Assembly (NCBI GenBank): GCA_964549495.1
Contig: CAZJWJ010000008.1
Coordinates: 514-64,513, forward strand
DNA length: 64,000 nucleotides
Reading direction: 5' to 3'
Origin: an uncultured Anaerolineales bacterium
GTDB taxonomy: Bacteria > Chloroflexota > Anaerolineae > Epilineales > Epilineaceae
The number at the start of each line of letters is the position of its first letter. Position 1 is the stretch's first letter. The notes beneath the pieces were generated by a model that saw only the letters and a program-made list of their open reading frames with translations, was not told the origin of the DNA and ran no database searches. Positions 6,619-64,000 of the stretch are shown here, one piece after another. A program made the translations under genes and the position numbers.

Positions 6619-6632
6619 GAGCCAATTCCCGC

Positions 6633-45737: not shown

Positions 45738-45783
45738 GATCACCCCTCCGCACGCGCACTCGGAGCTCAGGGTCCGAGTCGAT

Positions 45784-45828
45784 CGCATTGCATTATTCTA
45801 TCGCAATGCATCGCAAGAGCGCAATGCG
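45784..45828 (-). promoter_or_regulatory. candidate vapBC promoter/operator: repeated CGCAATGC/GCATTGCG half-sites around a TAGAAT -10
   Basis: cgcattgc (45784-91), cgcaatgc (45802-09) and gcgcaatgcg (45819-28). attcta (45795-800) reads TAGAAT on the coding strand, 58 nt upstream of the vapB ATG. Confidence 0.5.
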
Positions 45829-46877: not shown

Positions 46878-48986
46878 TCACAGCAACTGCGGGCGCCGCT
46901 GCTCGGCGAGGAAGCGCTCGGTTCCCGCTGGATCGTAGGTTCGGCGCATGATCAGCTCGAGCTCCAAGCCGTCTGGAAGGCAAGGCTGGAACTTGCTCAG
47001 CCCGCCCCGGCGGGTGTGGCCGGCCGCGCGCCTCGCCAGTGCGTGGAGGTCCGCAGCAGCCAACTGCTGGATCGAAGCGCGCGCTGCGGCCGCGGCGGCG
47101 GGATCGTCGGTGGATAGACCGAGGTTGCCGCGCTTCCAGTCGCCGCCCTGCTCTTCGAGGCCAGCCGCCAGAAGGGCGTTGATGGCACCACCGGCAAAGG
47201 TGTGCCAGTGCACCCCCTTGTCGGTGCGCTCGATCGGCGCCTCGCCCGGCGTCACCAGGCCTTTGTAGCCCAAGCGCAGCGCGGCCAGCTCGTGGGCGGC
47301 GCTCGGACTGAGCCAGGGGTAGCGCTCGGTGTCGGCCAGCACCGCCTTCATGGACTGGCAGACCTCGAAGGACAGGTAGCCTCCCTCGCCCGACCAGCGC
47401 GGCAGGGCCGCACGGTCGGCCGGCTCGACGTAGCAGACCGCCCGCCGCCAGTCGATGCTGCGCACCTGCCAGGGCTGGCCGGCCAACCGGAACAAGGCCG
47501 GTCCTGCGCGCTCCTCCAAGACATGCAGGAAGGCGAAGTCGAGGCTGCCGACCTCGCGCCGGCCATGCTGCACGCGGAAGATGGGGGGCGTGTCGAAGAC
47601 CGCGTAGAGCTCGAAGAAGTTCTTGCCGGCGTAGCGCTTCTCGCCCTCGGCGCCCAGGCTCAGCCGGCCTTCGGCTTGGTAGAGGATGTCGCGCTCGAGC
47701 ATGGTGTCGATGAGCGCATCCAGGTCGGCCTGGCTCAGGCCGCGGAAGGGGCTGGCGCCGGCCAACCAGGTCAGGATGCGATGGCGCGAGATGCCCATCT
47801 CCTGAAGCGACAGGGCGATGATCTGGTGGGCCAGGACGTGCGCGGCGGCGGTCTCCGGCACCACGTCCTCGACCCAGCCCTGCTGCATCAGGCGGATCAA
47901 TCCGGCGGCCTGGAGCATCGTCTCGGAGGTCCGGCACAGGAAGTGGCAGTTGGACACCGTTTCCGCTCGGCGGCCGGTGCGGCCCATGCGCTGCAAAAAG
48001 CTGGATACGGTGCGCGGCGCATCGATCTGGATCACGTGGTCCAGGTCGCCGACGTCGATGCCCAGCTCCAGGGTGGAGGTGCAGACGATGGCGGTGTTCG
48101 TCCCGTGCTGGAAGCGGGCCTCGGCGCGTTCGCGGTCCTCGCGGCTGACCGAGCCGTGATGCACGAAGGTGTCGATGCCCTTTCCCTGCAAGGCCGCGGC
48201 CACCTGTTCGACCAGGCGCCGACTCTCGGCGAAGACCAGGCTCTTGCGGCCCAGCCCGATCTCGACGACCCGCCGCACGACCCCCGCGTCACTCTCGACC
48301 AGGTCGACGGAAAGCTCCCGCAGCGCAGGCGGCTTGGCCGGATCGACACGGCGGTAGGGACGCTGGCTCGAGCCGGCCAGCCACTGGCCGATCCGATCGG
48401 GATTGCCGACGGTGGCCGAGAGGCCGATGCGCTGCAGGTCGCGACCACAGAAGCGGACCAGCCGCTCGAGAATGGCCACCAGGTGCGCGCCGCGGTCGTC
48501 GCCGGCAAAGGCGTGCACCTCGTCGACGACCACTGCCGACAGGCCCGCGAACTGCCCGGCCGCCTCTTCTGGTCGGGTCATCAGCATGACCTCGAGCGAT
48601 TCGGGCGTGGTCATCAGGATATGCGTCGGCGCCTCGCGAAAGCGCCGCCGCTCGGCCTGCCCGACGTCACCGTGCCACTTGAAGGCATCCAGGCCGACCA
48701 TGCGCGCATAGGCCTTGATGCGGTGCTCTTGGTTGTTCAGAAGGGCGCGGATGGGGCAGATGTAGAGTACGGCAACGGGAGCGAGCTCCTCGCTCAGGAT
48801 GCGCGACAGCAACGGAAAGATGCTGGCCTCGGTCTTTCCGCCCGCCGTCGGCGCCAGCACGATCGCGTTGTCCCCGGCAAGCACCGCTTCGATGCTCTGC
48901 TCCTGAACCGGCCGCAGCGTGTTCCAACCCAGCTCGTGCACGATGGCATGGCGCAGGTTAGGGTGCAGCTGGAAGAAGGCACTCAC
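46878..48986 (-). CDS. brxHI: Lhr-like DEAD/DEAH-box helicase, BREX BrxHI-type
   Basis: VLAPTAGGKTEA (Walker A), VVVDEVHAF (DEVH), LSATVGN, HHGSVSREDRERAE, QRMGRTGRR. 702 aa, GTG start. Position is last in the BREX operon. Confidence 0.85.
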   Translation of the reverse strand: MSAFFQLHPNLRHAIVHELGWNTLRPVQEQSIEAVLAGDNAIVLAPTAGGKTEASIFPLLSRILSEELAPVAVLYICPIRALLNNQEHRIKAYARMVGLDAFKWHGDVGQAERRRFREAPTHILMTTPESLEVMLMTRPEEAAGQFAGLSAVVVDEVHAFAGDDRGAHLVAILERLVRFCGRDLQRIGLSATVGNPDRIGQWLAGSSQRPYRRVDPAKPPALRELSVDLVESDAGVVRRVVEIGLGRKSLVFAESRRLVEQVAAALQGKGIDTFVHHGSVSREDRERAEARFQHGTNTAIVCTSTLELGIDVGDLDHVIQIDAPRTVSSFLQRMGRTGRRAETVSNCHFLCRTSETMLQAAGLIRLMQQGWVEDVVPETAAAHVLAHQIIALSLQEMGISRHRILTWLAGASPFRGLSQADLDALIDTMLERDILYQAEGRLSLGAEGEKRYAGKNFFELYAVFDTPPIFRVQHGRREVGSLDFAFLHVLEERAGPALFRLAGQPWQVRSIDWRRAVCYVEPADRAALPRWSGEGGYLSFEVCQSMKAVLADTERYPWLSPSAAHELAALRLGYKGLVTPGEAPIERTDKGVHWHTFAGGAINALLAAGLEEQGGDWKRGNLGLSTDDPAAAAAARASIQQLAAADLHALARRAAGHTRRGGLSKFQPCLPDGLELELIMRRTYDPAGTERFLAEQRRPQLL

Positions 48987-48992
48987 CCGCGC

Positions 48993-50363
48993 CTAACCCA
49001 ATCGTTTCGGAGTCGGAGACTCGGACGATGGTTCGCCGGCTGGGGGCGGCGTTTCCACAGAGTCTTCCGCGGCATCACCACCCTTGCGCGCCTCCAACTC
49101 CTCCGGCGTGAGCGCCGACTCGTCGACCGTGAAGTCGTAGTCCTGCTCGGGATCGTAGTCGGGGTAGAGGTCGACCCGGTCCATGACGTCGACCAGGTCG
49201 CGCAGGAAGAGGCGCGGGACGATGCTGACCTGGCCACCGAAGGCGCTGGTGGCCTGCTGGACGAGCGCGTCGATGAAGGCGTCGTCCACCCGCTCGCGTA
49301 GGCGGTCCGGATGCTCGGCTGGGAAGAGATCGCGCACCTTGCGCCCGACCTCGGCCAGGCGCTGGGCGTCGAAGGGCTGGAGGCGGACCTGGGGGGCGCG
49401 CAGGTTGTCGAAGCGCGGGTCGTCACCAAAGCGGGTCTCGACGCGCGCCGCCAGGGGCGACAGATCCTTGATGCCCTTGTAGCCGTCGTAGAACTCTGGC
49501 GTGCCGGTGACGACCAGGTAGAGGCCCGGCAGGTCGCCGCCCAAGAGGAGGTCGATCAGCTGGCGTAGGGCGTTGAGCGCTTTCTCGCGCACGTCGGAGC
49601 GCATGCGCTGCACGGTCTCGACCTCGTCGAGCACCAGCATCAGGCCCTGGTAGCGGCTCTCGCGCAGCAGTTGGAGCAGGCCGCGCAGGAAGGTGAGCGC
49701 GCCGGGTCCGTCCAGGTCGCCCTTGACGTCTGCGCTGCGCTTGATGGCCGCGGCCACGCTGGGTTCGCCGGAGAGCCAAGCCAGGAGCCCCTGGGCGGTG
49801 GCGAAGTCGGATTGTTCCATGGCCCGGTGGTAGGCGCGCAGAGCGCGCGCGAAGGCCGGGTTGCGCGTGCTCAGGTCGGCCAGCTTGTTCTCTAGCCGCT
49901 GCTCGACGGCCGCTGGGAAGGCCGGGTCGCTCTCGGCGATGCCTTGCAGGCGCATGACCTCTTCGCCGATCTCGTAGATCCAGCTGTCGACCAGGGCCGG
50001 AAAGGCGCCCTCGCCATCGGTGGCGGTGGTCAGGCGCTCCATCAGGCGGCGGTAGACGGTCTCGAGCCGGTGCAGTGGCGTGTCCGTGACGGAGATCTGG
50101 ACCTCTGCGGTGGCGAATCCGCGCTGGCGGGCGTGCCAGCACAAGAGCCGCGTGGCAAAGGTCTTGCCGCTGCCGTAGTTGCCCCGGATCCACTTGGCCC
50201 GGCCGCTGCCGCCACCACCGGCCACCTCGTCCAACTCCCCATCGATGACCTTCAGCAGCGGGTCCAGGCCCGTCGCGAAGTGGTGCAAGCCGTCGCCCGG
50301 CACCGCGCCAGTACGCAGCGCGGCCACGATCTCGCGCGCTTCTCGCTCTTGAACCTGGCTCAT
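48993..50363 (-). CDS. brxD: BREX ATP-binding protein BrxD (DUF2791-type P-loop ATPase)
   Basis: VAALRTGAVPGDGL..., IRGNYGSGKTFATRLL (Walker A), LMLVLDEVETV (Walker B). 456 aa. Family assignment is by recall. Confidence 0.8.
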   Translation of the reverse strand: MSQVQEREAREIVAALRTGAVPGDGLHHFATGLDPLLKVIDGELDEVAGGGGSGRAKWIRGNYGSGKTFATRLLCWHARQRGFATAEVQISVTDTPLHRLETVYRRLMERLTTATDGEGAFPALVDSWIYEIGEEVMRLQGIAESDPAFPAAVEQRLENKLADLSTRNPAFARALRAYHRAMEQSDFATAQGLLAWLSGEPSVAAAIKRSADVKGDLDGPGALTFLRGLLQLLRESRYQGLMLVLDEVETVQRMRSDVREKALNALRQLIDLLLGGDLPGLYLVVTGTPEFYDGYKGIKDLSPLAARVETRFGDDPRFDNLRAPQVRLQPFDAQRLAEVGRKVRDLFPAEHPDRLRERVDDAFIDALVQQATSAFGGQVSIVPRLFLRDLVDVMDRVDLYPDYDPEQDYDFTVDESALTPEELEARKGGDAAEDSVETPPPAGEPSSESPTPKRLG

Positions 50364-51463
50364 GCGGAGGGCTCCTGGGGAATGAAGACGTATTGCGGCT
50401 CACCCGTGGGCAGCGTCTCGCTCCGGAAGCAGCGATAGCCAAGCGCCTGCAGCTGTCGGTCGAGCCCGTTCATGAAGCCCGGAATGCGCGCCTTGCGCGT
50501 GTCCAGGCCCTCGGCCAACTCGCTGAGCGAGACCGAGCCATTCTCCGACAGGAGCCACAAAGCACGCCGCTGTCGCTTGTCGAGCTCGTCGAGGACGGTC
50601 GGAGACAGAGGTGGCCGATCGTCGGTTTCATCACCGGCACCCGCGACCGTACCCACCTCATCATTCGGCTCCAGTGGTTTTGGCGGCACCGGCGACCTCG
50701 GCGACTTCGACGACTCCGGCGGCTTGGTCGTCGCGGGCTCCGCCTGCTCGCGCACCGAGACGGCCGGCATGTCAGCATAGGCTCGGATGTCGATTCCTTC
50801 CGACGCTGATCCACTGTCATCCAGTTGCGGCTGATTTGCCGGAATGGGGTCGGTCGACGGGACGTCCATTGCAGTCAGCTCGCGCTCGCCCTCGAGCAAG
50901 GGCTCGAGCGGGTCGGACCTGAAGCGCCCACCGGCCCACAGTCGTCGCCACATGACCACCGCGATGCCGAAGCTCAGGATCAAGAGCGTGAGCATGATCT
51001 GATTCGAGCGAGGATCGTCGGTGGTCAGGAATTCGTCGCCGAAGACGATGATCATGCCGATCACCCAAACGACGAACACCACCACGCTGAGCACCGTGAC
51101 CGCGGCGAGGTGCAGCCCAGCGCCGAGGCTGGCGACGACGGAATGCATGCGCGCCTGCACCTGCTCCGTGGGCGTGAGCCCGGCCGGCAGGCTCTGCAGC
51201 GGTCCGTGCGAGCGCAGCCAGCGGGCGCCGAGCACGGTCATGCCCAGGGTCAGGGCCATGGCAAGGCGGAATTGGGCGTCCGACATGCCCTCGCCCGTGC
51301 TCTGGATCCCGAGCAGCATCTCGCCGACGGCGAGGATGACCGCGGCCATCACGAAGGCCAAGGGCCCTGCGATGGACACGCGGAGAATCCAGAGCAGGCA
51401 CCCGCCGAGCTGCGCCGGATCGGGCCCAGCCGCGAGCTGGTCCTCTGGCTTCTGGATCGTCAT
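50360..51463 (-). CDS. uncharacterised multi-TM protein with Pro/acidic linker and C-terminal winged-helix-like module (non-canonical BREX-embedded gene)
   Basis: ATGA overlaps with both the pglZ stop and the brxD start. 4-5 TM helices in aa 20-170. The C-terminal 70 aa are ~45% identical to the PglZ C-terminal tail. Confidence 0.75.
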   Translation of the reverse strand: MTIQKPEDQLAAGPDPAQLGGCLLWILRVSIAGPLAFVMAAVILAVGEMLLGIQSTGEGMSDAQFRLAMALTLGMTVLGARWLRSHGPLQSLPAGLTPTEQVQARMHSVVASLGAGLHLAAVTVLSVVVFVVWVIGMIIVFGDEFLTTDDPRSNQIMLTLLILSFGIAVVMWRRLWAGGRFRSDPLEPLLEGERELTAMDVPSTDPIPANQPQLDDSGSASEGIDIRAYADMPAVSVREQAEPATTKPPESSKSPRSPVPPKPLEPNDEVGTVAGAGDETDDRPPLSPTVLDELDKRQRRALWLLSENGSVSLSELAEGLDTRKARIPGFMNGLDRQLQALGYRCFRSETLPTGEPQYVFIPQEPSA

Positions 51464-54042
51464 CCACCACCCCGCCAGCTGTACTGATGCTCGCCCGAGC
51501 CCAGGCGCTCGACCTCGAAGAGCGGTTGCCCTTCGGCCTGGAGCGTGTGGTGGAGCTTGGTCATGAAGCCGCGCACCCGAGCCGGGCGCATCTCCAAGCT
51601 GCGAGCCAGCTCGGTCTCGGTCAGGGTCCGGTTGCCGGCCAAGAGCGCCAGGGCCCGCTGCTCGTTGTCGTCGAGGCCCTGCGCGATGCCCTCGGGGATC
51701 TCCGCCGGCAGCCGGCGCGGAACGGCCACCGGCTTCGGCTCGACGGGCTTGGCCGGCACCTCCGGCAGGGCCGCGGCGACCAAATCCCCCGCGGGACCAG
51801 GCTCTTCAACGACCGCGTCCAGCTCCACGTGCTCCGGGAACCTCTCTCGCGCCGCGGGCCCGGCATCGAACCACCAAGCCGGCTCCTCGGCCGGCAAGCC
51901 GCCCCGCTCCAACCAAGCCAAGGGCACGGCCATCTCCTCCAGCCCGCAACCCCCGTGGTAGCCCACCTTGGGTTGGTTGCCGCGATAGGCCGACATCCGC
52001 CAGGCAAAGGCCTGGCGCGCATCGGTGCCGCCAAGCCCGTGGGTGTCGATCTCGATGAAACCCGCCGGCGCAGCCTCGCCCTTGCCGAGCGCCAGGAAGC
52101 GCGCGGTGGCCCCGGCGCTGACGCGATGGTCGGTGCTGGCATGCAGGCTGTGGCCGTGATCGCTGGTGAGCAGGACGCTGCGGCCGGCGTCGAAGGCCGC
52201 GTTCAGGGCCGGCAGCAGGCCGGCGATCTGATCGGCGCGGACCTGCACCGAGAGGCCGGCCGCGCTGCCGATGAGGTCGTCCACGGTGTTGTAGACCGCT
52301 ACGACCAGCCGCGGACCGTCGGCGGCCAGGGCCGCGCGCAGCGAGGCGCCGCCATCGGCCAGGTCGCCCTTGAGGAAGAGCTGCGTGCTCAGGCTCTCGA
52401 GCCAGTCGTTCTGGTTGAGCCGCGCCTTGTCGGTCTTGGCCGCCTCGGCCTGCCAGGTCGATTCCTCGACCAGGGGATCGTCGGGAATCTTGCCCGCCAT
52501 CAGGGCGCCGCGGGCGTGGCTGGTGATCGAGGGCAGGATGGAGATGCCCAGCGGCAGCTCGGCAGCGCCAAGGTCCTCGCCCAGCTCCAGGCCGATGCCC
52601 GTCCCCGCCGTCGCGGCCAGCTGCCACAGCAGCTCGTTGAAGACGGCCAGGCTGCAGCCGTCCAAGACCACGACGAAGACCGGCCGGCCGCTCTGGTCGA
52701 TGCGCGGCCGGGCCACATCGCGCAGGATGTTGTGCATCGGCACGACGCCATCCTGCCCGATGGCCGCAGGGTAGTCCTCGGCCAAGGACTTGGCGAAGGC
52801 CAGGTTCTCGGCGTCGCGCCGCTTGCGCCAGGCGTCCAGGACGGCCCCGGCCTCCGAATGGAAGCTGCCGGTGGCCGCCAGGCAGCGCTGCATTCGCATC
52901 GCGGCCAAATCGGCAAAGGCGCCGTGGCGCTGGTAGGCGCGCAGGCGGGCGTCGATGGCGCTGGCCGAGCTCTCCTCCGTGGCCAGGTAGCGCGAGAGGC
53001 GGGCCAGCTCGGCGAGCAGGGCCAGCTCGCGCCGATAGGCGTCCACGGCGCGATGGCGCTCGAGCCATTCGATCTCTTCGCGCCCGATGGCCTCGCCCGC
53101 GGCGGCGCGATCGGCGATCTGCGCGGCGCGGTTCTCGAAGCCCAGCGGAAGGATGTGGCTCCGGGCGATCAGCGAGGGGGCAAGTAGCTGGCGGGCGAGG
53201 CTGTCGGCCTGCTTCAGGTAGGGTGCCGCGGCCGGCCCCATCTCGTCCAGCACCTTCTCGATCAGCTGGACGATGCTCCGGCGCAGGCTATCGGACGGCA
53301 GGCCGACGTGGGCATCGTCGAGCGCGCCGTCGAGCGGGCCCCAGACGGCCAGCGGCAGCTCGTCGGACTCGGTGGCCAGCAGGATGCCGTGGACCAGCAG
53401 GGCTTCCAGGCGACCCGGCTCGGCCAGGCTCCAGGCCAGGATGCGGCCCTGGGTGCCCAAGTGGACGGGGGACTGGCGCCTGAAGAGCCGGCGGACGGGC
53501 GGCTCCAGCGCGGGGCCCTTGGCCAGCAGCTTGGCGACCACGCCGGCCGCGCTGGCGCTGCGGATGCGCTGTTCGAGGATGATCTCGATCAGCAGCTCTT
53601 CCAGCAGCTGGGCATCGACGACGGTGGGTAGGGTGCGCTGGGCCATGGTCTGGCGCAGCTGCGGGGCGTGGTCCAGGGCCAGCTGCTGCAGCTCTGGGTC
53701 CTCCACGCCGCTGACCTGCACGCCCAGGGCCACCGAAAGGATGTCGACGATGGACAGGGTGTGCACGTGCCCGCTGCAGGAGCGCTCGAGCAGATCGGGC
53801 GGCAGCCGCTGCGCCAGCTCGCGCGGCATCAGCGCGATGAAGGGCGCCCCATCCGCCTTCCAGACCGTCCGCCGCAGGGCCAGCTCGGTCTCGCTGCGGC
53901 AGACGGTGAACTTGCTGCCGCCGGCCTCGACGGCCTCGGGCAGGTCACCCAGCCCGCCTTCGTCCAGCGCCAGCACGTAACCGCCGCGCTCGGCGCAGCC
54001 GGCCATCTCGATCAGGCGCTGGATCAGGGGCGTGGCGTTCAT
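51460..54042 (-). CDS. pglZ: BREX alkaline-phosphatase-superfamily protein PglZ, with extra C-terminal winged-helix-like module
   Basis: PglZ core: VFVVVLDGCSLAVF, SITSHARGALMAGK, VYNTVDDLIG, VLLTSDHGH. 860 aa. ATGA overlap with the brxC/pglY stop. Confidence 0.9.
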   Translation of the reverse strand: MNATPLIQRLIEMAGCAERGGYVLALDEGGLGDLPEAVEAGGSKFTVCRSETELALRRTVWKADGAPFIALMPRELAQRLPPDLLERSCSGHVHTLSIVDILSVALGVQVSGVEDPELQQLALDHAPQLRQTMAQRTLPTVVDAQLLEELLIEIILEQRIRSASAAGVVAKLLAKGPALEPPVRRLFRRQSPVHLGTQGRILAWSLAEPGRLEALLVHGILLATESDELPLAVWGPLDGALDDAHVGLPSDSLRRSIVQLIEKVLDEMGPAAAPYLKQADSLARQLLAPSLIARSHILPLGFENRAAQIADRAAAGEAIGREEIEWLERHRAVDAYRRELALLAELARLSRYLATEESSASAIDARLRAYQRHGAFADLAAMRMQRCLAATGSFHSEAGAVLDAWRKRRDAENLAFAKSLAEDYPAAIGQDGVVPMHNILRDVARPRIDQSGRPVFVVVLDGCSLAVFNELLWQLAATAGTGIGLELGEDLGAAELPLGISILPSITSHARGALMAGKIPDDPLVEESTWQAEAAKTDKARLNQNDWLESLSTQLFLKGDLADGGASLRAALAADGPRLVVAVYNTVDDLIGSAAGLSVQVRADQIAGLLPALNAAFDAGRSVLLTSDHGHSLHASTDHRVSAGATARFLALGKGEAAPAGFIEIDTHGLGGTDARQAFAWRMSAYRGNQPKVGYHGGCGLEEMAVPLAWLERGGLPAEEPAWWFDAGPAARERFPEHVELDAVVEEPGPAGDLVAAALPEVPAKPVEPKPVAVPRRLPAEIPEGIAQGLDDNEQRALALLAGNRTLTETELARSLEMRPARVRGFMTKLHHTLQAEGQPLFEVERLGSGEHQYSWRGGG

Positions 54043-57000
54043 GCGCCAGCATCGTCCTCGGGCTTGCGGCGCAGGGTGATGTCGATGCGCAGCTCGGCGG
54101 CGCCCTGGGCGGCCTGGGCAATCTGCGACCTGAGCTTGCTGATGAAGGTGTCGACTTCACGCGGGTCGATCGGCTTGTCTCGCTCGTGGAAGACCTCTTC
54201 GAAGTCGCGAGGTGGCTCCGGATCTGGGTCCGGATCCGGGTCGGGGTCCGGCTTGACCGTGATCAGCTTTCGCACGAGATCTGCGGCATGCTCGTTCCAG
54301 TCGTGGATCTTGGCACCCGTCAACGTGCTGTGCTGTCGCTCCGGCTCCAACCAATGCTGAAGCTTCTCCACATGGTGTTGGATCTCCTTGCCGAGCACGG
54401 GATTGCCGAGTGCCCGTCTCAAATAGCCCAGATCATCCTCGTCGACCCGCTTGACCAACTCGAGGTCGGCCTCCGCACCCCGCGTGACGCCCCGCAGGGG
54501 GTCGTCGATGTCGTCGGGCCAGGCGCTCACCAGGGCGGCCAGCATGTGGTAGGAGTCGAGCTTGGTGTCGTCTACGGGCTGGAGGCGGTCGATGGCCTGG
54601 CGCAGCTCGCTGAGGCGCGGCGTCTGCTCGCTGCCGCCCAGGCGGACCAGTAGCGAGTGCAGGCTCCGCAGCTGCTGGCGGGCCAGGTGGCCGGCCTCGC
54701 GGATCTGGCCGCCCCAGGCGTCCTGGATGCCCAGGGTGCGGTAGGCGGTGGGTTCCTCCAGGCCGAAGAGGACCGCGCCCAGGTTGCGCGCGCGGCTCCA
54801 CTCGGCGGCTTCGAGGACCGGTGCGCGTTCGAGCAGCAGGCCGACGCGGGCGTTGTTGTCCAGCTTGCCCGGGTCGATGGGGTCACCGGTCTTCTCGGCC
54901 AGGGTGCGGTAGCTGCGGGAGCGCAGGACGAAGAAGAGGAATAGGTTGCGCAGGGCCGGCTGCAAGCCGTACTCCTCGGTCAGCGCGTTGTCGATGGGCG
55001 CCCAGAGCAGGCTCGCCTCGCCCAGGGGCTGGAGCACGTGCTGGATGTAACGGGTGTCCTGCCGCAACTGGCCGTGGGTCTGTCCGAGCTTGACGACCTC
55101 GAGCGGCTCGCCCAGGTCGCGCAGGACGCGCTCGGTCTTGTCGTCGAATGGAGCGCGGGCGCTTTCGGTCTCGGAGGCTTGGAGCATCCAGCCCAGGAGG
55201 GTCTCCAAATCTCCGGTGGTGGGCCGGGACTTGAAGCTGGGGTGCTGCGGGTAGCGTCGGTCGAGCAGGCTGCGCGCGAAGTGCTCCAGGTTGTCGGACA
55301 GCTCGGGCTTGGGGATGCTCTCCTCGACGTCGCCGACCATGGCGATGATCTCGCCGCGGTCGCGGTAGGCGCTCTTGATGGCCTCTTGGAGTTGGGCACG
55401 CAAGGTGGCGGCGCGCTTCTCGGCCCGGTCGACCAGCTGGAGCTGGTCGGAGGGGTCGCGGTTGGGCATCAGGCTCTTGCGGCCTTCGGGGCTGGCGATC
55501 AGCTCGCAGGCGGCCAGGTCGGTGATCAGGTCCAGCTCGTGGGGGGTGAAGTGGCGGGGCAGCCAGCAGATGGTGTAGAGCGAGCCTTCGGCCTTGCGCA
55601 CGGTGGGCACGCGCAGGCGGTCGTCCTCGACCGAGAAGCCGGCTTCGTCCCAGGGGTAGTCGATGACGATGCGGAACTCGGCCGAGCCGGGGCGGAAGCG
55701 CTCGTAGGGCATGGCGCGGATGTTGCCGATGCACAGGCTGCCGCGCCGCTCGGTGTTGCGCCAGTTGACGCGCAGGGGCCCGTCGTTGTTGTCCTGGGGG
55801 CCGAATCCGCTCTGGCCGGCGATGCCCAGCTGCTGCTTGAAGACGCTGTAGAAGGTGTGGAAGCGGCGCTGCAAATTGTCGACGCTGCTCTTGGCGCGTT
55901 CGAGCAGCTCGCCGAAGTCGGGGCCCTCGATGGTGATGCTGACCACGGCGTTGCCGCCAGAGCCGCTGATCTGCACGGCCGGGATGCGCCGCGAGAGCTC
56001 GAGCAGGTCGCCGGCGGTGACCGACATGCGCCCGAGGTCGGTGCGGCCCTGGACTTCGACGTCGTTGAAGCGCACCAGGCGATCGACGCTCAGGTCGGCA
56101 AAGCCGGAGCTGAGCCGGGGCGAGACCTTGCCCAGGAGGCTGGTCTTGACCAGTTGGGCCAGGGTGTGGGCGCGGCGCTCGTCGATGCTGCCCAGGTTCT
56201 CGTCGGCGGCCATGCTGGCGATGGCCGGGCCGATGCGTTGGTGGTAGAGGTTGTTGATGGCCTGCAGGGTGGTGACGCGGCGGTAGCCGATGAAGTTGTC
56301 GGTGGGAAAGATGAAGTCGAAGGCGCTGCCGACGGGCACCAGCTCGCCCAATGGCAAGTCGCGGCTGGCGATGAGCAGCTGGTAGAGCAGGCGCAGGGCG
56401 GTGCGGTCGCGCTGCAACAGCGAGGAGACGTCGATGAGCATCTCGATGAGCGCGGGGTGGTAGGGGTAGACGTCGCGCAGGTAGTCTTCGTCGCCGGATT
56501 GCAGGATGGTGGGCAGCAGCTTGCTGTGGCGCTCGGTCAGGGCGTCGAGGACGGGCGCGAGCTTGTCGGGGTCCTTGACCTTCAACACCCGCTCGCGGAC
56601 GATGTGCCGCAGCTCGACGTCCTCCAGGGTGATCAGCTCGAAGCGCTCGCGGTGGTGGTCGAGGTGCTCGTGGAGCTCTTCGTTGTCGCTCATGTCGGGG
56701 AAGAAGTCGGAGAAGCGCCGCTGGCGGGCCATCAGGACGGCCAGGGGGATGTCGCGCGGGCCGCCGCTGAAGTCGACCATCACGTTGAGCTGGTTGATGG
56801 CGGCCTTGAAGTCGTGGTCGTCCTTGCCGGAGAGCCACAGCAGCATCTCGTCGAGCATCAGCACCAGGCCGTCGAAGCCTTGCTGCTTCAGGTGCGTGGC
56901 CAGCCGGCGCAGGCCTTCGGCCCAGGCGGGGTTGATGCCGGCCTGCTCGGCGCTCATGCCCTTGTATTCCAGGTAAGCCAGGGCGAACTTCTCGCGCGGC

Positions 57001-57614
57001 TTGATGTCCTGGCTGCCCAGCAAGTGCTCGAGTACTTCCTGGGCATCGGGGACGCCGACGCTTTCCATGCCCTTCCAGAAGGCCTCGCCGTAGCGCTGGC
57101 CTTCGCGCTGGGCCTGCTGCAGCACGCCGTCGACGTCGATGAACTCGAAGAGCGGCTTGCCGCGCTTGTCCAGCTCGCGGTTGACGGCTTCGTAGACCAG
57201 GCGGTCGAAGCGGTCGGATTGCCGGGCGGCGCTCATCAGGTTGACGCGCACGACCAAGAGCTCGCGCTCGGCCACCCAGGGGCGGAACTGGCTGCGCAGC
57301 TCGCCGACGAAGGGGTGGTCTTTCTGCCAGGCCACGTCGGAGTTCTCGAGCAGGTAGCTCAGGTAGCCCATGAAGTGGCTCTTGCCGGAGCCAAAGCTGC
57401 CGTGGATGAACCAGCCCACGCCCTTGCCCTGCTTGAGCTCGGCCTTCATGCGCGTCAGCACGGCCCGCAGATCGTCCTGCACGCCGGGCGTCAGCACGTA
57501 GCTGTCGACCAGGCGCTGGGGCGAGTGCTCACCTTCGTCGATCTGGATGACGAAGTCGAGGGCGGAGATGCCGCTGGGAATCTCGAAGACGTCGTCGAGC
57601 GTCACCTGACTCAT
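54039..57614 (-). CDS. pglY: BREX large P-loop ATPase PglY/BrxC
   Basis: 1191 aa. WFIHGSFGSGKSHFMGYL (Walker A), LVLMLDEMLLW (Walker B). Length and position are typical of BrxC/PglY. Confidence 0.85.
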   Translation of the reverse strand: MSQVTLDDVFEIPSGISALDFVIQIDEGEHSPQRLVDSYVLTPGVQDDLRAVLTRMKAELKQGKGVGWFIHGSFGSGKSHFMGYLSYLLENSDVAWQKDHPFVGELRSQFRPWVAERELLVVRVNLMSAARQSDRFDRLVYEAVNRELDKRGKPLFEFIDVDGVLQQAQREGQRYGEAFWKGMESVGVPDAQEVLEHLLGSQDIKPREKFALAYLEYKGMSAEQAGINPAWAEGLRRLATHLKQQGFDGLVLMLDEMLLWLSGKDDHDFKAAINQLNVMVDFSGGPRDIPLAVLMARQRRFSDFFPDMSDNEELHEHLDHHRERFELITLEDVELRHIVRERVLKVKDPDKLAPVLDALTERHSKLLPTILQSGDEDYLRDVYPYHPALIEMLIDVSSLLQRDRTALRLLYQLLIASRDLPLGELVPVGSAFDFIFPTDNFIGYRRVTTLQAINNLYHQRIGPAIASMAADENLGSIDERRAHTLAQLVKTSLLGKVSPRLSSGFADLSVDRLVRFNDVEVQGRTDLGRMSVTAGDLLELSRRIPAVQISGSGGNAVVSITIEGPDFGELLERAKSSVDNLQRRFHTFYSVFKQQLGIAGQSGFGPQDNNDGPLRVNWRNTERRGSLCIGNIRAMPYERFRPGSAEFRIVIDYPWDEAGFSVEDDRLRVPTVRKAEGSLYTICWLPRHFTPHELDLITDLAACELIASPEGRKSLMPNRDPSDQLQLVDRAEKRAATLRAQLQEAIKSAYRDRGEIIAMVGDVEESIPKPELSDNLEHFARSLLDRRYPQHPSFKSRPTTGDLETLLGWMLQASETESARAPFDDKTERVLRDLGEPLEVVKLGQTHGQLRQDTRYIQHVLQPLGEASLLWAPIDNALTEEYGLQPALRNLFLFFVLRSRSYRTLAEKTGDPIDPGKLDNNARVGLLLERAPVLEAAEWSRARNLGAVLFGLEEPTAYRTLGIQDAWGGQIREAGHLARQQLRSLHSLLVRLGGSEQTPRLSELRQAIDRLQPVDDTKLDSYHMLAALVSAWPDDIDDPLRGVTRGAEADLELVKRVDEDDLGYLRRALGNPVLGKEIQHHVEKLQHWLEPERQHSTLTGAKIHDWNEHAADLVRKLITVKPDPDPDPDPDPEPPRDFEEVFHERDKPIDPREVDTFISKLRSQIAQAAQGAAELRIDITLRRKPEDDAGA

Positions 57615-57701: not shown

Positions 57702-59456
57702 CTAGTCGTCGCCAAGGCGGATCGCCCCCTGTTCGAGGATCTGATGCGCGAGCTGCTTGGGGTTGTAACCGCCCGGGATGCGCACCAGCGGCTTGTCGTA
57801 GGTGTCGCAGTAGGCCTTGACCTCACTGTATCCGTGGCTCGACCAGCGGATCAAGAGCAGCACGACCGCGACATCGGTCCGGGCGATGGCCGATTCGAAC
57901 TCGGTATAGGAGGCCGCTCCGCCGTCCAACCACAAGAGCTCGCTGAGGCCGAAGGCCCGCTCGATGCGCTTCTTGTGTCGTGGGCGCTGGATGCCGCCGA
58001 TCAGCACGACGGCCTCACCCTCCAACAAGGCGCGGACGCGCTCTTCCTCTTCGCTCGGCGTTTCGGCAGCGATGTCGTCGTCTTGGAGATGCGCGGTTTC
58101 GGTCTCGCGCGATGCCAGGTACCGGTCGATGGCCCGCGAGGTGAGCAGGACGTTCTGGCCGGGCTCGATCTCATCCGGGATGTCGTCGAAGACGGGCAGC
58201 AAGATGTCGCGCAGTTGGACGCTGCTGGGTGCCACGCCCGACTCGACCAGTTTGTCGACGGCGTCCAGCGCCCGGTCCCAATCTTCGCGAGCGCCAGGGC
58301 CGGTTGCGCCGCGAATGCGCTGGATGTGATAGCGCAGCCGTCCCCATTGCCGTGCCTGGTCGCGGCCGACGCTGAGCTGCGCCTCGAGTTCATCGCGCAA
58401 TTCGGCGCAACGTTCGCGCAGGCTTCCCCATGCGCCCGGGTCGGCGGGATCGGTCAGGCGCATGTAGCGCGAGAGGTAGATGCGCTGGCGATCGGTGATG
58501 GAGCGGAGCCAGCCGAAGGCGTCACGTTGGCTCTCGTCACTGCGCTCGTCGAGTCTGGCCACGGCGAGGCGCAGGGCGGATTGGGCTTCGGCCAGGAGGG
58601 CCAGGGCCTGGCTCAGGGCGTCGGAGAGCTCGTCGGTTTCGAGGATCATCGCGCAGAGTCGCAGGGCATCGGCCAGCGCTTCGAAGTTCCCCGCCAATTC
58701 GTCCCAATCTCCCGGGTCGGTGGGGACGGGCGCGTCGCTACGGCACATCCACAACGAGACCTTGGCGCTGTGGCCCTTGCGCAAGATCTCGCGATCGCCG
58801 GGCGCGATCTCGGTATGGAAGTCCACGCCCCGCGCCAAGCGCCGCTGCCGCTCCCCGACCCAACGCGCGGCCTCCGCCTTCAGGCTCGCGTCGCCGGCCA
58901 GCCGGATCAGCAAGCGGCTCTGCGGCTCCGGCGCGGATGCTTCGGTGCCTGTCCGCCCCTGGTCTACGGTCTGTGACGCAGCCATCTCGGCGCGCGCAGC
59001 TTCGCGGGCTCGTCGGGCTTCTCGAGCCTCCTCGGCACGTTCGGCTTCGCGGGCGGCCAATACCTGTGCGATCCGCTCCTCGAGCGATTCGGGCTCTTCG
59101 GGCTCCTCCTCGTCTTCGTCGGCCTGGTCGGTGCTGGCATCTTCGTCGCGATCGGCCTGGTCGCCTTCGTCATCGGCGTCCGTCGCCGGCGCTTCGGCCG
59201 CGGGCTCGCCGGCACCGGCTTCGTCGATCTGCTCGGGCTGGTCGGCGACCGCGTCCAACTCCGGCTGGCGCAACGCGCGCTGGATTCGGTCGGCCGCTTC
59301 GAGCAGGATCGCCCGCAGCTCGGCGTCTTCCTCCGCCAGCTTCGAGAGCCGCAGCAGCAGCGGGAGCATGCTCTCCGCGAGCGAAGCGGCATCACCGCGA
59401 ACCTCTCCGCCCGGCTCCGTCCGATCCTGGTTCATGCCTTGACCCTCGTCGCTCAT
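57702..59456 (-). CDS. uncharacterised acidic protein with DUF2325-like C-terminal domain (non-canonical BREX-embedded gene)
   Basis: True start is the ATG at 59456, forming an ATGA overlap with the pglX stop; the track's 730-aa form carries a Gly/Arg junk extension inside pglX. D/E-rich aa ~70-135, helical middle. C-terminus VVLIGGIQRPRHKKRIERAFGL...TDVAVVLLLIRWSSHGYSEVKAYCDTYDKPLVRIPGGYNP. Confidence 0.8.
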   Translation of the reverse strand: MSDEGQGMNQDRTEPGGEVRGDAASLAESMLPLLLRLSKLAEEDAELRAILLEAADRIQRALRQPELDAVADQPEQIDEAGAGEPAAEAPATDADDEGDQADRDEDASTDQADEDEEEPEEPESLEERIAQVLAAREAERAEEAREARRAREAARAEMAASQTVDQGRTGTEASAPEPQSRLLIRLAGDASLKAEAARWVGERQRRLARGVDFHTEIAPGDREILRKGHSAKVSLWMCRSDAPVPTDPGDWDELAGNFEALADALRLCAMILETDELSDALSQALALLAEAQSALRLAVARLDERSDESQRDAFGWLRSITDRQRIYLSRYMRLTDPADPGAWGSLRERCAELRDELEAQLSVGRDQARQWGRLRYHIQRIRGATGPGAREDWDRALDAVDKLVESGVAPSSVQLRDILLPVFDDIPDEIEPGQNVLLTSRAIDRYLASRETETAHLQDDDIAAETPSEEEERVRALLEGEAVVLIGGIQRPRHKKRIERAFGLSELLWLDGGAASYTEFESAIARTDVAVVLLLIRWSSHGYSEVKAYCDTYDKPLVRIPGGYNPKQLAHQILEQGAIRLGDD

Positions 59457-62400
59457 CCTGCCTCCGCCCACTGCGCGAGGAGCGCTTCGGTCACGCCCTG
59501 CTCGCCCACCAGGTCCTGTACCACCGCCCGGAACTCCTCGGCCGCCGCCTGGTCCTCCCAAGCCACCCAGGGTAGCAGGAACCAGACCCCGTACAGCAGA
59601 CCATAGCAGCGCTCCAGCGCCAGCCCTTCGTTGGCCGCCCGCTCGTAGAGCCCCAGCAGCACCTCGGCCCGCTGCAGCGGCGTCCACCCCGCCCAACCAT
59701 AGAGCGCCCGATCCCCCTCGGCCCCGGGCACCTCGGTAAAGGCGATAAACCGCTCCTTGGGCACATCCAACTTCCCCCGCAGCCGCCAGTAGGCCGTCTT
59801 CTGAAACTCCGCACTCCGATACTTGGGCGGCACCGGCACCTCGACCTCTTCGCCCCGGTCCTCGGCATGCTGCAGCTCCCAGGTCCGCTCCCAAGCCGCC
59901 CGCTTCTCCAGCCCCTTGGGCTTGTACACGTGATGCTTGTTGTTGGGCACGCTGTCCACCGCCACCAGCCGCTCCAACTCCCCCACCAAGGAATAATCCG
60001 GCCGCCCCGTCCGCACCTCACACACCGCCCGCACCTTGGCATCCCCCTCCAAGGCCACCGCCGCCTGCGCCAAGGTCCACGGCGCCGCCTGCTCCTTGGC
60101 CCAATCCTCCAGCCGATCCGCCAACCACCCATCCAGCGCCTCGCGCTCCTCGGCCTCGTAATCCGGCTTGTACCACCGCCGCTTGTAGGTCGGCTGCTCC
60201 AGCAGCTGCAAGGCCTTGCTCTTCTCGATCAGCGCCAGCCGCGCCTCGACCCGCGCTCGATAGGCCTCGTCCTCGATCTCGGCAGTGTCGGTGACGGGAT
60301 CCCAGCCGTGGCGGGAGAACCACTTCGTGGGTATCCGATTCCGCAACTCGTCGCGAGTATGGGCACCTCGGATCTCATGATCAAGTCGAGCTAGACGAAT
60401 CTCGAAAGCCCGCAGGCCGGGCCGAATGGGCGGCGCCTCATCTGGTCCAAGTGATGCCACCGCCGAATCAGAAAAGTCAACACCTGGATCTACGTTGTAT
60501 AGTGCGTAGCAGTACCAGTCGAGTTCCTCTTGTATGGCAACAAGGGTCTTGAGGTACTCCAGATCAGCGCTACGATGCGCGAGCAATTCACTTCGCAATG
60601 CAACGGGACCTTCAGACAGTAGTTGATCGATCTTGTCGCGAACCCGTGACATTACACGCTCAGATGCAAGCAAATCCATCCTACGCGCATACTGATCCAG
60701 TTTACCAGGTAACAACTCCACCACGGGGAATGCCTGCATCTTTGTAGAGTCGTATACCGCACGTCGCTCCCACCCCTCACTGGCAATTCCGCCTCCGATT
60801 CCCCCTGTCCCCTTATCAAAGCAGACTTGCTTCAGCCAGAACAGACTTGTCGATGAATTCAATTGGCCAAGCAGAACGTAGTGCTCGTCCTCAGTTACTT
60901 CGGGTGGCATCTTGATTACCGGAGCGGCTTGATTGAATACGGTCCCTAGTTGATCGAGCGCGAAGTGGTTATGGGTGGCAAGTTCCGCAAACACTATCGT
61001 ACGCGGAGTGAATCGATCCGCGGAAATCTGCCCGTACTCCCACCACGGTTTCTCCACGTCGCGATACTCAGCCCCACCAAACACCTTCCGTGCTTCAAGC
61101 AATCTACGGTATGGCCAGAGAACGTTCGAGACACCACCAAGTGCTTCAATGTCGATCGTGCGTATTTCACTTGTGTAAGGAAACAGCACTTCAAGCTGTG
61201 CTTCCGCACACCAGTTGCGGATGTTTTCTCCAACCCCAAATAGCCTGAGGAGTGCCGAGCTACAGCCGCGCCGCTCGAACACCCCTAGCGGCTGGGAGAA
61301 GGCATCGTCCATTTTCGTGATGCACATGAAACCAATTGCATCGGCAAGTTCACCAACTGTGTGAGCTGCTACCTCCTCTACTCGAGATTGGAGTCGACTG
61401 GCACCGCCTCCTCGAAGACTCCAAGGGTGAGAGTGATACTTTCGATTAGGACTATCATCAACTGAGATATACTGATTCTCGAAGTCAGGGTCTCGGTACC
61501 CCGCCTCGATACTCGACCAGACTAACCCTTCCGATGGTTCCACAGGCACGCTTGGTTCACCTCGTTTGCCGAGCACTGTCCGCACCAAGTCACTTGCATT
61601 TGGGAATGAGGCTCGGCCGAAGATCATTACTGTAGGTGTACCGTGCCCAGGGATGTAGGCACCCGCGGTGTCCACAATCATCGTCAGCGTCACGGTCGGG
61701 AAGAACCTCTCGATTAGGGCTGCCCCAAAACTCCGCTTAGAGAAGGAGTTGGCAGTTATCAGTCCTACGTAGCCACCCTTATCCTCTGTGACTGCGAGTT
61801 GAAAACAGCGTTCAGTAAAGGGGCAACCAAGCGAGTAGAGTCGGTAGGCAGAGACGTATCGTGGCTGCTTCTGCCCACCGACCGTGATCTCCTCCTTGTG
61901 GTACTTCTTGCGCGCCTTGTCCTTCTCGGTGATGTAGGGCGGGTTGGCCACTACCGCGTGGAACCCCTCGGCCAGCACCGGCCGCAGCTGCTCGCGGACC
62001 TCGCGCGGCGTGAGCATGGCCGCCGGCTTGTCCTTCACGCTCACCGCCACTCCAACGCCATAGTCGTCACCGAACCCTAGCTGCTGGATCTCGCCGGCCG
62101 GCTCCTTGGCGTCGGCTTCCAACTCGACCTGATCCAGCCCATCCGCCCAGAAAATCTGCGGATGGAGGTCGGCCCCATTGGAGAGGTCGGTGGAGCCGGC
62201 GAGTTCGAGGGCGTACATCAGAAGTCGGGCTCGGGCCAGGGCGCAGGCGTAGTCGTTGAGGTCGATGCCGACGACGCGGGAGAGGACGTGTTGGGCGGCT
62301 TCCATGGGACTCAGGTCGGGGCGGGCCTGGCGGAGGCCGGTGAAGAGGCGGTCGAAGCCGGCCAGGAGGAAGTGGCCGCTGCCGCAAGCGGGGTCGATCA

Positions 62401-63058
62401 GGCGGACGGTTTCGATGTCCCAGTGCTCGATGGCGGGGGTGAGGGTCTCGTCGAGGATGAAGTCGACCACGAAGTCCGGGGTCTGGAGCAGGGCATAGCG
62501 CTGCTTGACCACGGGGTCCAGGTCTTGGTAGAGGTCGCCCAGCAGGCGGCTGTCGAAGTCCTCCTGGTCGAAGCGCCAGCGCAGCTCGTTGGTGTCGGGG
62601 TCGACATCGCGCCAGAAGTCCAGCAGCTTGCGGCTCAGGGCGTCGCTGGGTTCGGTCACCTCGGCGGGGGTTAGGGCGAAGAGCTCGGTCAGGCCGCTCT
62701 CCTTCTTGGCCAGGTCGCGGTAGATCCAGCGGAAGTAGGCCGTCTCGCCCAGGTCGGGCGCCAGGCGGTGGAAGAGCAGCTCCGACTCGCGGTCGAGGAT
62801 TCGGCCGGGGCGCAGGAGGCCGCGGTCCTCCAGGACGCGCAGGTAGACCGAGCGCAGGACCCACATTACCGCCGCACGGCGGCTGAGCAGGTCCGTCCAT
62901 AGGCGGAAGCCCTGGCCCACGCGCTCGGCGGCGTGCAGCGCCTCGGCGCGCTGGCGGACCGTGGGGTCATCCAGGATGCGCTGGCGAAGGTCGGCGGCGA
63001 TCTCCACCGACAGCGCAGAGAGTTCCTCGGTCAGGGCCTTGCGGGTGGCTGGGTTCAT
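59453..63058 (-). CDS. pglX: BREX N6-adenine DNA methyltransferase PglX
   Basis: 1201 aa. Motif I IDPACGSGHFLL, motif IV VVANPPYI (61934-61945 encodes NPPY). Length and architecture are typical of PglX. Confidence 0.92.
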   Translation of the reverse strand: MNPATRKALTEELSALSVEIAADLRQRILDDPTVRQRAEALHAAERVGQGFRLWTDLLSRRAAVMWVLRSVYLRVLEDRGLLRPGRILDRESELLFHRLAPDLGETAYFRWIYRDLAKKESGLTELFALTPAEVTEPSDALSRKLLDFWRDVDPDTNELRWRFDQEDFDSRLLGDLYQDLDPVVKQRYALLQTPDFVVDFILDETLTPAIEHWDIETVRLIDPACGSGHFLLAGFDRLFTGLRQARPDLSPMEAAQHVLSRVVGIDLNDYACALARARLLMYALELAGSTDLSNGADLHPQIFWADGLDQVELEADAKEPAGEIQQLGFGDDYGVGVAVSVKDKPAAMLTPREVREQLRPVLAEGFHAVVANPPYITEKDKARKKYHKEEITVGGQKQPRYVSAYRLYSLGCPFTERCFQLAVTEDKGGYVGLITANSFSKRSFGAALIERFFPTVTLTMIVDTAGAYIPGHGTPTVMIFGRASFPNASDLVRTVLGKRGEPSVPVEPSEGLVWSSIEAGYRDPDFENQYISVDDSPNRKYHSHPWSLRGGGASRLQSRVEEVAAHTVGELADAIGFMCITKMDDAFSQPLGVFERRGCSSALLRLFGVGENIRNWCAEAQLEVLFPYTSEIRTIDIEALGGVSNVLWPYRRLLEARKVFGGAEYRDVEKPWWEYGQISADRFTPRTIVFAELATHNHFALDQLGTVFNQAAPVIKMPPEVTEDEHYVLLGQLNSSTSLFWLKQVCFDKGTGGIGGGIASEGWERRAVYDSTKMQAFPVVELLPGKLDQYARRMDLLASERVMSRVRDKIDQLLSEGPVALRSELLAHRSADLEYLKTLVAIQEELDWYCYALYNVDPGVDFSDSAVASLGPDEAPPIRPGLRAFEIRLARLDHEIRGAHTRDELRNRIPTKWFSRHGWDPVTDTAEIEDEAYRARVEARLALIEKSKALQLLEQPTYKRRWYKPDYEAEEREALDGWLADRLEDWAKEQAAPWTLAQAAVALEGDAKVRAVCEVRTGRPDYSLVGELERLVAVDSVPNNKHHVYKPKGLEKRAAWERTWELQHAEDRGEEVEVPVPPKYRSAEFQKTAYWRLRGKLDVPKERFIAFTEVPGAEGDRALYGWAGWTPLQRAEVLLGLYERAANEGLALERCYGLLYGVWFLLPWVAWEDQAAAEEFRAVVQDLVGEQGVTEALLAQWAEAG

Positions 63059-63059
63059 C

Positions 63060-64000
63060 TCAGGCCGGGTCCTCCACGGGGATGGCTTGGTCGAGCGGCA
63101 AGACCGCTCCCTCGATATGGAACAGCGGTGCGCTGCGGTTGAGCATGGGCTGCTGCTTGTGGATGATGCCCGGCACCACCACCACCCACATGCCGCGCTC
63201 CGTGCCCAGCGTGGCGTTGTAGATCTGTTGCACCAGGTGGGTCGCCTGGCATAGCTCGAGCAGGGCCAGGTCGCCCAGCACGTTTACCGCGCCAGGCCGG
63301 CCGTGCTCGCGCAGCAGGTCGCGCAGCAGCGTCTCGGCCGCCTCGGTCAGCTCGTCGCGCAGGAAGGCAAAGCGCTCGGCCTTCTCGAACTTGGCGAAGT
63401 CGGACTCCATGCGGCCCAGCAGCTCCGCCTCGAAGCTGATGAAGTTGGCATCGGGGCCCATCGCGCGGGCGATGTTGCGGCCCAGCTCCGGATGCTGGTC
63501 GGGCGGGGTGACCACCATGCGCCAGCTGCCCTCGCGTTGGGCCGCCGCCAGCATGCCACCCACGATCTGGGAGGGGCTGCGCTCGGCCGTCAGCAGCATG
63601 GCCGGCAGGGCATCCGGCTCCGGGCCCGGGCGGGCCTCCACGGCATCCGGGCCGCGGGCCACCAGCTGGTCGCCGTCCAGGCGGACGCCGGGTAGGTCCA
63701 ACTCGGCCACCAGGTCGGCCAGGGTCTGGTCGGCCGGCCAGTCGACCTGGTCGTTGAAGTGGGCGTCGATCTCCGCCTTCAGCGCGTCCAGCGCCATCGG
63801 CAGCTGCTCGCGGTGCAGCAGGAAGGGCAGCGCCAGGCGCGGGTCGACCGGCGGGCGGAAGAGCTCGCCGGCATCGGTCCGGTCCAGATCGCTGGCGATG
63901 CGCGCCACCAGCTCCACCGGGTCGCCGGCGAAGCCGGGCAGCGTCGCGGCCAGGGAGTCGCGGGCCGCCTCGCCTTGCTTGGGCGGCCAGTCGGCCAGGC
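63060..64000 (-). CDS. 3' part of the gene preceding pglX (open to window edge); possible BrxB(DUF1788)-like C-terminal region, identity unresolved
   Basis: I translated 63918-64000 by hand. The frame stays open (…LADWPPKQGEAARDSLAATLPGFAGDP-VELVARIAS…), so the GTG at 63917 in the track is probably internal. The stop lies 1 nt before the pglX ATG. The tail ...GMWVVVVPGIIHKQQPMLNRSAPLFHIEG loosely recalls the BrxB C-terminus. Confidence 0.6.
   Translation of the reverse strand, partial: LADWPPKQGEAARDSLAATLPGFAGDPVELVARIASDLDRTDAGELFRPPVDPRLALPFLLHREQLPMALDALKAEIDAHFNDQVDWPADQTLADLVAELDLPGVRLDGDQLVARGPDAVEARPGPEPDALPAMLLTAERSPSQIVGGMLAAAQREGSWRMVVTPPDQHPELGRNIARAMGPDANFISFEAELLGRMESDFAKFEKAERFAFLRDELTEAAETLLRDLLREHGRPGAVNVLGDLALLELCQATHLVQQIYNATLGTERGMWVVVVPGIIHKQQPMLNRSAPLFHIEGAVLPLDQAIPVEDPA

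Follow-up and report, generated by a model that had tools for sequence, protein, structure and literature searches.

The 64-kb window analysed here, i.e., the whole stretch of 64,000 nucleotides taken from contig CAZJWJ010000008.1 of an uncultured Anaerolineales bacterium, carries on its minus strand a type-2 bacteriophage exclusion (BREX) locus, or phage growth limitation (Pgl) system. Between the genes pglZ and brxD of this locus lies a gene for a predicted membrane protein of 367 residues, which ends in the same domain as PglZ itself, a winged helix-turn-helix (wHTH). We are highly confident that the gene is genuine and under selection, an accessory gene in a sub-clade of type-2 BREX loci. 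It encodes a membrane-anchored paralogue of the PglZ wHTH which appears to be previously undescribed, while the module on PglZ is already known. The best explanation overall, to which we give a probability of roughly 45%, is that of an accessory inner-membrane protein presenting the PglZ-type wHTH as a docking module. The relevant parts of the two proteins are:

50360..51463, minus strand: the accessory gene, for a 367-residue membrane protein with about four transmembrane (TM) segments, a linker and a PglZ-type wHTH.
50948..51403, minus strand: its TM region, residues ~21-172, with four hydrophobic segments seen by hydropathy and in the family alignment.
50603..50947, minus strand: its Pro/Ser/Glu-rich linker, residues ~173-287 (~115 residues), presumed to be disordered (family identity 21%, many indels).
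50384..50602, minus strand: its winged helix, residues 288-360, modelled with AlphaFold2 (AF2) and compared with Foldseek, paralogous to the PglZ wHTH.
51715..51855, minus strand: the Pro/Glu/Ala-rich linker of PglZ, residues 730-776, modelled as disordered, with a predicted local distance difference test (pLDDT) score < 50 in the full-length AF2 model.
51475..51693, minus strand: the C-terminal three-stranded winged helix of PglZ, residues 784-856, modelled with the order helix-helix-strand-helix-helix-strand-strand (H-H-E-H-H-E-E) at pLDDT 82-94.

An earlier note on this DNA had aligned the two protein ends by hand and reported a gapless match over 67 positions with 30 identities; its coordinates and both peptide strings are exact, and BLASTP agrees with it. 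Comparing the two whole proteins gives a single significant segment, residues 790-856 of PglZ against residues 294-360 of the membrane protein, with 30/67 identical and 41/67 positive positions, no gaps and E = 2e-12. The note had let its claim depend on shuffled controls, and against these the similarity is clearly significant: the Smith-Waterman score is 127, compared to 22.9 +/- 4.2 (maximum 46) in 5000 shuffles of the same composition (z = 24.7). A hidden Markov model (HMM) built from 36 PglZ tails, with the membrane protein excluded, gives the membrane tail 86.6 bits (E 3e-26), and among the 720 stop-to-stop segments in the window it finds no other at E < 10. When each tail is searched with tblastn against the six frames of the window, just these two copies are found, the next best match having E = 0.2. 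Chance, a composition effect and a generic helix-turn-helix (HTH) recurring in the window are ruled out by the shuffles, tblastn and the HMM. It therefore follows from the BLASTP, shuffle and HMM results that the similarity of the tails is due to homology and not to composition.

Compared with the 36 PglZ tails, the membrane tail falls within the range of similarity that these show to each other, and its BLASTP and HMM scores place it in the family of PglZ-2 C-terminal wHTH domains. Searched alone against NCBIfam, its best match is to positions 827-870 of PglZ_2 at E 0.19, which is not significant by itself. The 367-residue protein is not fused to the alkaline-phosphatase-fold enzyme of PglZ; its N-terminal 175 residues consist of hydrophobic TM segments. 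As the PglZ enzyme domain is absent, it is a paralogue of the wHTH domain and not a PglZ.

The earlier reading of the shared pattern as a winged helix is borne out by the models, in which both tails adopt a three-stranded winged-helix fold. For the last 84 residues of the membrane protein, AF2 with a 37-sequence alignment gives a pLDDT of 90.8 and the order H-H-E-H-H-E-E (H5-10, H13-25, E27-29, H30-37, H41-57, E63-67, E73-77). The full-length model of PglZ has a pLDDT of 86, and its best Foldseek matches are the type-1 PglZ 9zn5_B and PorX. On PglZ the tail is a regular part of the protein: it is present in 35/35 aligned homologues (40-61% identity), where the earlier note had proposed to look for it, and taken alone it matches positions 826-875 of 890 in the NCBIfam model BREX_PglZ_2 (E 1.6e-6). 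The note had not known of such a module on PglZ; however, the C-terminal three-stranded wHTH of type-2 PglZ was described in Nucleic Acids Research in 2026 (PMC12839542) and lies within that NCBIfam model. What the BREX literature searched, including PMC12839542, does not mention is a membrane component of BREX-2 or a membrane-borne copy of the wHTH.

A membrane-borne winged helix could in principle be a DNA reader, which would hold DNA of the host or the phage at the membrane, or autoregulate the operon in the manner of ToxR/CadC-type membrane regulators. In a Foldseek search of the PDB with the membrane-tail model, the best matches are wHTH domains of the MarR and ArsR families, with TM-scores of 0.62-0.66 for the MarR family, and the sequence profile reaches HTHs of Lrp/AsnC, MntR and MarR at E about 1e-4 to 5e-3. 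The wHTHs matched best by sequence and fold bind DNA, and several were solved in complex with it. The PglZ tails are also mildly basic (mean net charge +2.1), with Lys/Arg on the recognition helix, and the wHTH modules of BREX have been treated as DNA- or macromolecule-binding (PMC12839542). In the membrane copies, however, most basic positions of the recognition helix are gone and the net charge is close to zero (-1 to +1), and the acidic wing tip, an almost invariant Gly-Glu, contains no conserved basic residue and thus lacks the Arg that is conserved in MarR-type wings. Moreover, specific DNA binding by a single wHTH of 70 residues is weak when a dimerisation element is lacking. Taken together, we consider a membrane-anchored DNA binder to be quite unlikely. 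The membrane wHTHs form a subfamily with its own signatures, QRRA[LI]W, GFM[NH]GL[DN]RQL.ALG and CFR.ETLP.GE.

In a genome of this composition it has to be asked if the gene is real at all. It could be a non-functional remnant, in which an older 3' end of pglZ is fused to a spurious high-GC frame. At 70% GC long spurious open reading frames (ORFs) are common, and the tail together with the ATGA junction to brxD resembles the pglZ-brxD junction of loci without the gene. However, the GC content at third codon positions (GC3) is 0.84 for the whole ORF, as is typical of coding sequence in this DNA; it is 0.86-0.94 in the hydrophobic part, and 0.84-0.94 across the TM region and the tail. About six lineages have full-length homologues sharing the TM pattern, and their TM identity of 34-64% excludes that they are assembly duplicates. 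For the wHTH and TM regions, the ratio of nonsynonymous to synonymous substitutions (dN/dS) lies at 0.04-0.38. We therefore reject the remnant, whose probability is close to nil.

The TM block, like the membrane protein as a whole, has no match to any Pfam, NCBIfam or PADLOC family. Weak matches to Bac_rhodopsin (best E 0.04, in 2/4 members) were taken as hydrophobic noise. In a Kyte-Doolittle scan, which is crude, each family member has three or four segments; in the alignment, four hydrophobic blocks are conserved in position. Lys/Arg is abundant in the loop between TM2 and TM3 across the family and, in the window protein, in the stretch after TM4; elsewhere the loops are acidic or neutral. 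By its hydrophobic segments and loop charges the protein is predicted to be an integral inner-membrane protein, and the positive-inside rule predicts a topology with both termini inside, which would make the linker and the wHTH cytoplasmic. Several residues of the TM region are invariant: R28, P34, G87-P88, R105 and W133.

These features go beyond a plain anchor, and they could be read as those of a membrane effector, in which an activated BREX-2 complex or a phage component (DNA or protein) is sensed by the wHTH, whereupon the TM block oligomerises and damages the membrane as an abortive-infection back-up. The invariant polar residues in about four TM segments, the conserved cytoplasmic loop and the purifying selection on the TM region (dN/dS 0.07-0.38 in well-aligned pairs) would fit such a role, and TM effectors are common in other defence systems. 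BREX loci also often recruit back-up effectors, but the auxiliary or back-up effectors that have been catalogued are nucleases (PMC12839542). The profiles of Pfam, NCBIfam and PADLOC reveal no similarity to known pore-forming or effector families, and the TM region is much less conserved than the wHTH: mean identity within the membrane family is 34% for the TM region, 74% for the wHTH and 21% for the linker. An effector thus seems improbable, on a par with the DNA binder.

The family is small. An exhaustive phmmer search of 1.84 billion representative sequences gave 33 matches, including three full-length homologues with 44% (P0056), 38% (P0057) and 37% (P0058) identity and two fragments of the same family. 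The remaining matches are PglZ tails or fragments of PglZ, except for one weak match (P0082). Among these representatives, the gene is found in about six lineages. Wherever the context can be read, the homologue sits between pglZ and brxD with stop and start codons overlapping by 4 nt, and on contigs that extend far enough brxHI comes after brxD. The loci with the gene are L005, L006-8, L009-11, L012/13, L014, L015 (a metagenome-assembled genome labelled Candidatus Epilinea brevis), L016 and L018, and every readable upstream PglZ retains its own wHTH. In four other related BREX-2 loci, which lack the gene, pglZ abuts brxD directly. A neighbour-joining tree of the PglZ bodies places the loci carrying the gene in one clade, which also holds loci without it.

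No match to the membrane protein was found by tblastn among 72,556 plasmids. A scan of viral contigs gave no relative either, and hence no hint of a mimic carried by phages. A word-indexed homologue search, which is too insensitive, finds only the membrane protein itself when queried with the whole protein, and nothing when queried with the PglZ tail.

Some members may be missed by gene callers. In L014, a full ORF of 358 residues (6011-7087) starts at a GTG overlapping the end of pglZ, while the public call is a fragment of 144 residues, identical to P0060; through such miscalls family members can be hidden in automated surveys. Elsewhere the module may occur in other settings. P0082 (L017, 1563-2369) is a soluble protein of 268 residues ending in a weak PglZ-type wHTH, with E 2.8e-4 to the membrane protein; its neighbours are YhaV/PrlF toxin-antitoxin genes and an HTH_3 gene, and no BREX locus lies within the 3.4 kb available. 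Four short proteins of 80-110 residues (P0063, P0065, P0070 and P0072) contain little beyond a PglZ-type wHTH; they may be independent modules, or pglZ gene calls that were cut short.

The two copies have evolved at different rates. In the membrane protein, dN/dS is 0.04-0.21 in the wHTH and 0.3-0.83 in the linker, and it is below 1 in all regions of all compared pairs. The PglZ wHTH is also under purifying selection (dN/dS 0.13-0.38), with a dN 2-7 times that of the membrane wHTH. For the same pairs of loci, the membrane wHTHs are 73% identical, the PglZ wHTHs 45% and the N-terminus of BrxD 81%. In 6/6 loci, PglZ tails from elsewhere resemble the membrane wHTH more than they resemble the PglZ tail of that same locus, and in the window the resident PglZ tail ranks only 13th among the 36 PglZ tails in closeness to the membrane tail.

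A recent local duplication is ruled out by the 45% identity of the two tails, by this rank and by the fact that the membrane tails form their own group across lineages. The earlier note had suggested that a domain duplication created the extra gene. That the modules are homologous stands, but the event was neither local nor recent, as the rank of 13th of 36 and the conserved multi-lineage family make clear. Since the membrane wHTH is the most conserved part and evolves more slowly than the PglZ wHTH, the duplication must be old and both copies under selection. The comparison of sequences points to an asymmetric divergence after this old duplication, with the membrane copy lying nearer to the presumed ancestral sequence.

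We suggest that the wHTH is a tethered docking module rather than a classical DNA reader, although we hold this mechanism only tentatively. It is favoured by the long linkers, the near-zero charge, the lost basic positions and the invariant Gly-Glu of the wing tip. On PglZ the wHTH sits on a linker modelled as disordered, and the linker of the membrane protein is its least conserved and most indel-rich part. The PglZ wHTH would fish for a putative BREX-2 partner, perhaps a core protein (e.g., BrxD, BrxHI, PglY or PglW), perhaps a nucleoprotein complex. The membrane protein, whose translation would keep pace with that of PglZ and BrxD, would present the same module from the inner membrane. The partner, and via the partner the BREX-2 assembly, could then be attached to the membrane at the place of phage DNA entry, with the TM block serving mainly as an anchor or oligomerisation platform. 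In the structural papers searched on type-1 PglZ, BrxB binds PglZ's N-terminal domain, and no partner is mentioned for the C-terminal domain.

It can also be speculated that the same arrangement serves as a negative regulator or decoy, in which the membrane wHTH competes with that of PglZ and restrains the partner, or PglZ activity, at the membrane as long as there is no infection. Homology and common core motifs link the two modules, and translational coupling of the gene between pglZ and brxD would fix the stoichiometry. Pgl components are reportedly toxic when unbalanced, and PglX is said to be toxic without PglZ in Streptomyces. However, most BREX-2 loci lack the gene, and in a second clade the PglZ wHTH is only 25-33% identical to the membrane copy, which weakens simple competition. 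We regard a decoy as unlikely, if somewhat less so than the effector.

Several observations also weigh against docking at the membrane. The gene is rare, and it is absent from the locus with the closest PglZ relative (L001, 60% identity) as well as from three other related loci; being confined to about six lineages and missing from related loci, it is evidently dispensable for BREX-2. In the second clade (L006/L014/L018, L009/L015 and L012) the PglZ wHTH has lost the shared motifs, with R changed to H, GFM to GAV and PSGE to ADGD, and hence the two copies need not bind the same thing now. DNA is bound by the nearest relatives in structure, i.e., MarR, ArsR and Lrp. Finally, about four TM segments with several invariant residues exceed the needs of a simple anchor.

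Type 2 is the least studied BREX type, and published domain maps give the C-terminal wHTH of PglZ. The locus described here has this module on a separate polypeptide, predicted to be membrane-anchored and under tighter constraint than the PglZ copy, and some BREX-2 systems may thus work at the membrane. A bolder and rather doubtful proposal is that the protein is the first dedicated membrane component of BREX, a receptor whose PglZ-derived wHTH would station the BREX-2 machinery, or a BrxD/BrxHI module, at the place on the inner membrane through which phage DNA comes in; a stronger version has BREX-2 activation linked by it to a response of the membrane. Since PglZ carries the same module, identification of the ligand would also reveal the role of the type-2 PglZ wHTH. 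As the family is small and optional, what it adds to BREX biology is a side-branch, not a revision.

The surrounding genes were assigned with Pfam, NCBIfam and PADLOC profiles. By these, the minus strand at 46.9-64 kb reads as a complete type-2 BREX (Pgl) system, although pglW is visible only as its 3' end. PglX, the BrxC-type PglY and PglZ are found together with the type-2-specific PglW, BrxD and BrxHI, all six in order. The order along the minus strand is the pglW 3' end, pglX, a gene for 584 residues, pglY, pglZ, the 367-residue gene, brxD and brxHI:

63060..64000, minus strand: pglW, of which the window holds the 3' end (PADLOC PglW E 1.1e-7, model positions 1129-1384 of 1413).
59453..63058, minus strand: pglX, adenine methyltransferase (NCBIfam BREX_2_MTaseX, 1018.9 bits).
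57702..59456, minus strand: unannotated gene for 584 residues between pglX and pglY, without a Pfam or PADLOC match.
54039..57614, minus strand: pglY, BrxC-type ATPase (PADLOC BrxC-PglY E 1.2e-146; NCBIfam PglY E 2.3e-88).
51460..54042, minus strand: pglZ, type-2 BREX phosphatase/nuclease of 860 residues (NCBIfam BREX_PglZ_2 E 1.3e-83 over residues 35-847; PADLOC PglZ E 1.1e-68).
48993..50363, minus strand: brxD, ORC/Cdc6-type ATPase (NCBIfam BREX_BrxD E 1.9e-167; Pfam BrxC_BrxD).
46878..48986, minus strand: brxHI, Lhr/Ski2-like helicase (PADLOC BrxHI E 1.3e-257; Pfam DEAD and Helicase_C).

Read directly, both junctions of the 367-residue gene, to pglZ and to brxD, are ATGA stop/start overlaps of 4 nt. 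The AGGAG Shine-Dalgarno sequence of brxD, 9 nt before its ATG, lies within the final P-Q-E codons (CCC CAG GAG) of the membrane gene. The P-Q-E end is kept in the membrane proteins of homologous loci (50363-50385, minus strand, in the window), and because these codons contain the AGGAG of brxD, its conservation at the protein level may partly be a constraint from translational coupling.

Upstream, the start codon of the 584-residue gene (57702-59456) overlaps the stop of pglX (ATGA) and is preceded by GGAGG; the N-terminal half of its product is acidic and of low complexity. The gap between pglX and pglY is a variable slot in relatives, which holds an AF2212-like protein and PemK in L002, and a CHAT-DAC protein and two unknown genes in L003. 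In L018, a PIN-domain gene is located directly upstream of pglY. The GC3 of pglX is 0.74 (overall GC 0.62), below the 0.84-0.93 of its operon neighbours, which may reflect horizontal exchange of a part of the gene, e.g., the target-recognition region. Directly downstream of brxHI in the window, a PIN-domain protein (Pfam PIN, E 6e-13) is encoded at 45053-45484 on the minus strand, with a small ORF (45474-45788) overlapping its start. The two are probably a toxin-antitoxin pair flanking the defence locus. In L004 (10577-18580), brxHI does not directly follow brxD. The genes in its place are of unknown kind or encode a DNA_pol_A_exo1 protein, a DEAD helicase of shorter length and a UvrD-like helicase, and they make up a different downstream module for BREX-2.

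Among known systems, the MarR, ArsR and Lrp/AsnC families share the fold of the module (Foldseek TM-score 0.6-0.66, root-mean-square deviation 2.4-3.2 A), and a weak profile similarity covers H1-H3 (E 1.6e-4 to 5e-3). However, sequence identity is 13-30%, the Pfam HTH_24 match is sub-threshold, and every score stays under the curated thresholds of the families. The module does not belong to the MarR family, as Pfam MarR gives 12-15 bits against a cut-off of 24.6, and its domain of ~70 residues lacks both the flanking dimerisation helices and the conserved basic residue of the wing. ToxR and CadC are inner-membrane regulators with an N-terminal wHTH of the OmpR type, a single TM helix and a periplasmic sensor domain. 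The likeness to these is a winged helix at the inner membrane, but the protein described here has a C-terminal wHTH, about four TM segments and no more than short periplasmic loops.

FtsK combines an N-terminal anchor of four TM helices with a long Pro/Gln-rich linker and a C-terminal winged helix, gamma, which reads KOPS DNA and contacts XerD. The layout of a polytopic anchor, a low-complexity linker and a C-terminal wHTH, predicted here to be cytoplasmic, is alike, although no translocase motor separates linker and wHTH in the membrane protein and no sequence relationship to FtsK was detected. The closest counterpart in sequence is the C-terminal wHTH of type-2 PglZ (PMC12839542; NCBIfam NF033446, BREX_PglZ_2), which is of the same domain family, has the same fold and occupies the same C-terminal place after a long low-complexity linker. 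The membrane copy differs in being carried by a block of about four TM segments and not by the PglZ phosphodiesterase, and it forms a more conserved subfamily of its own with a neutral net charge.

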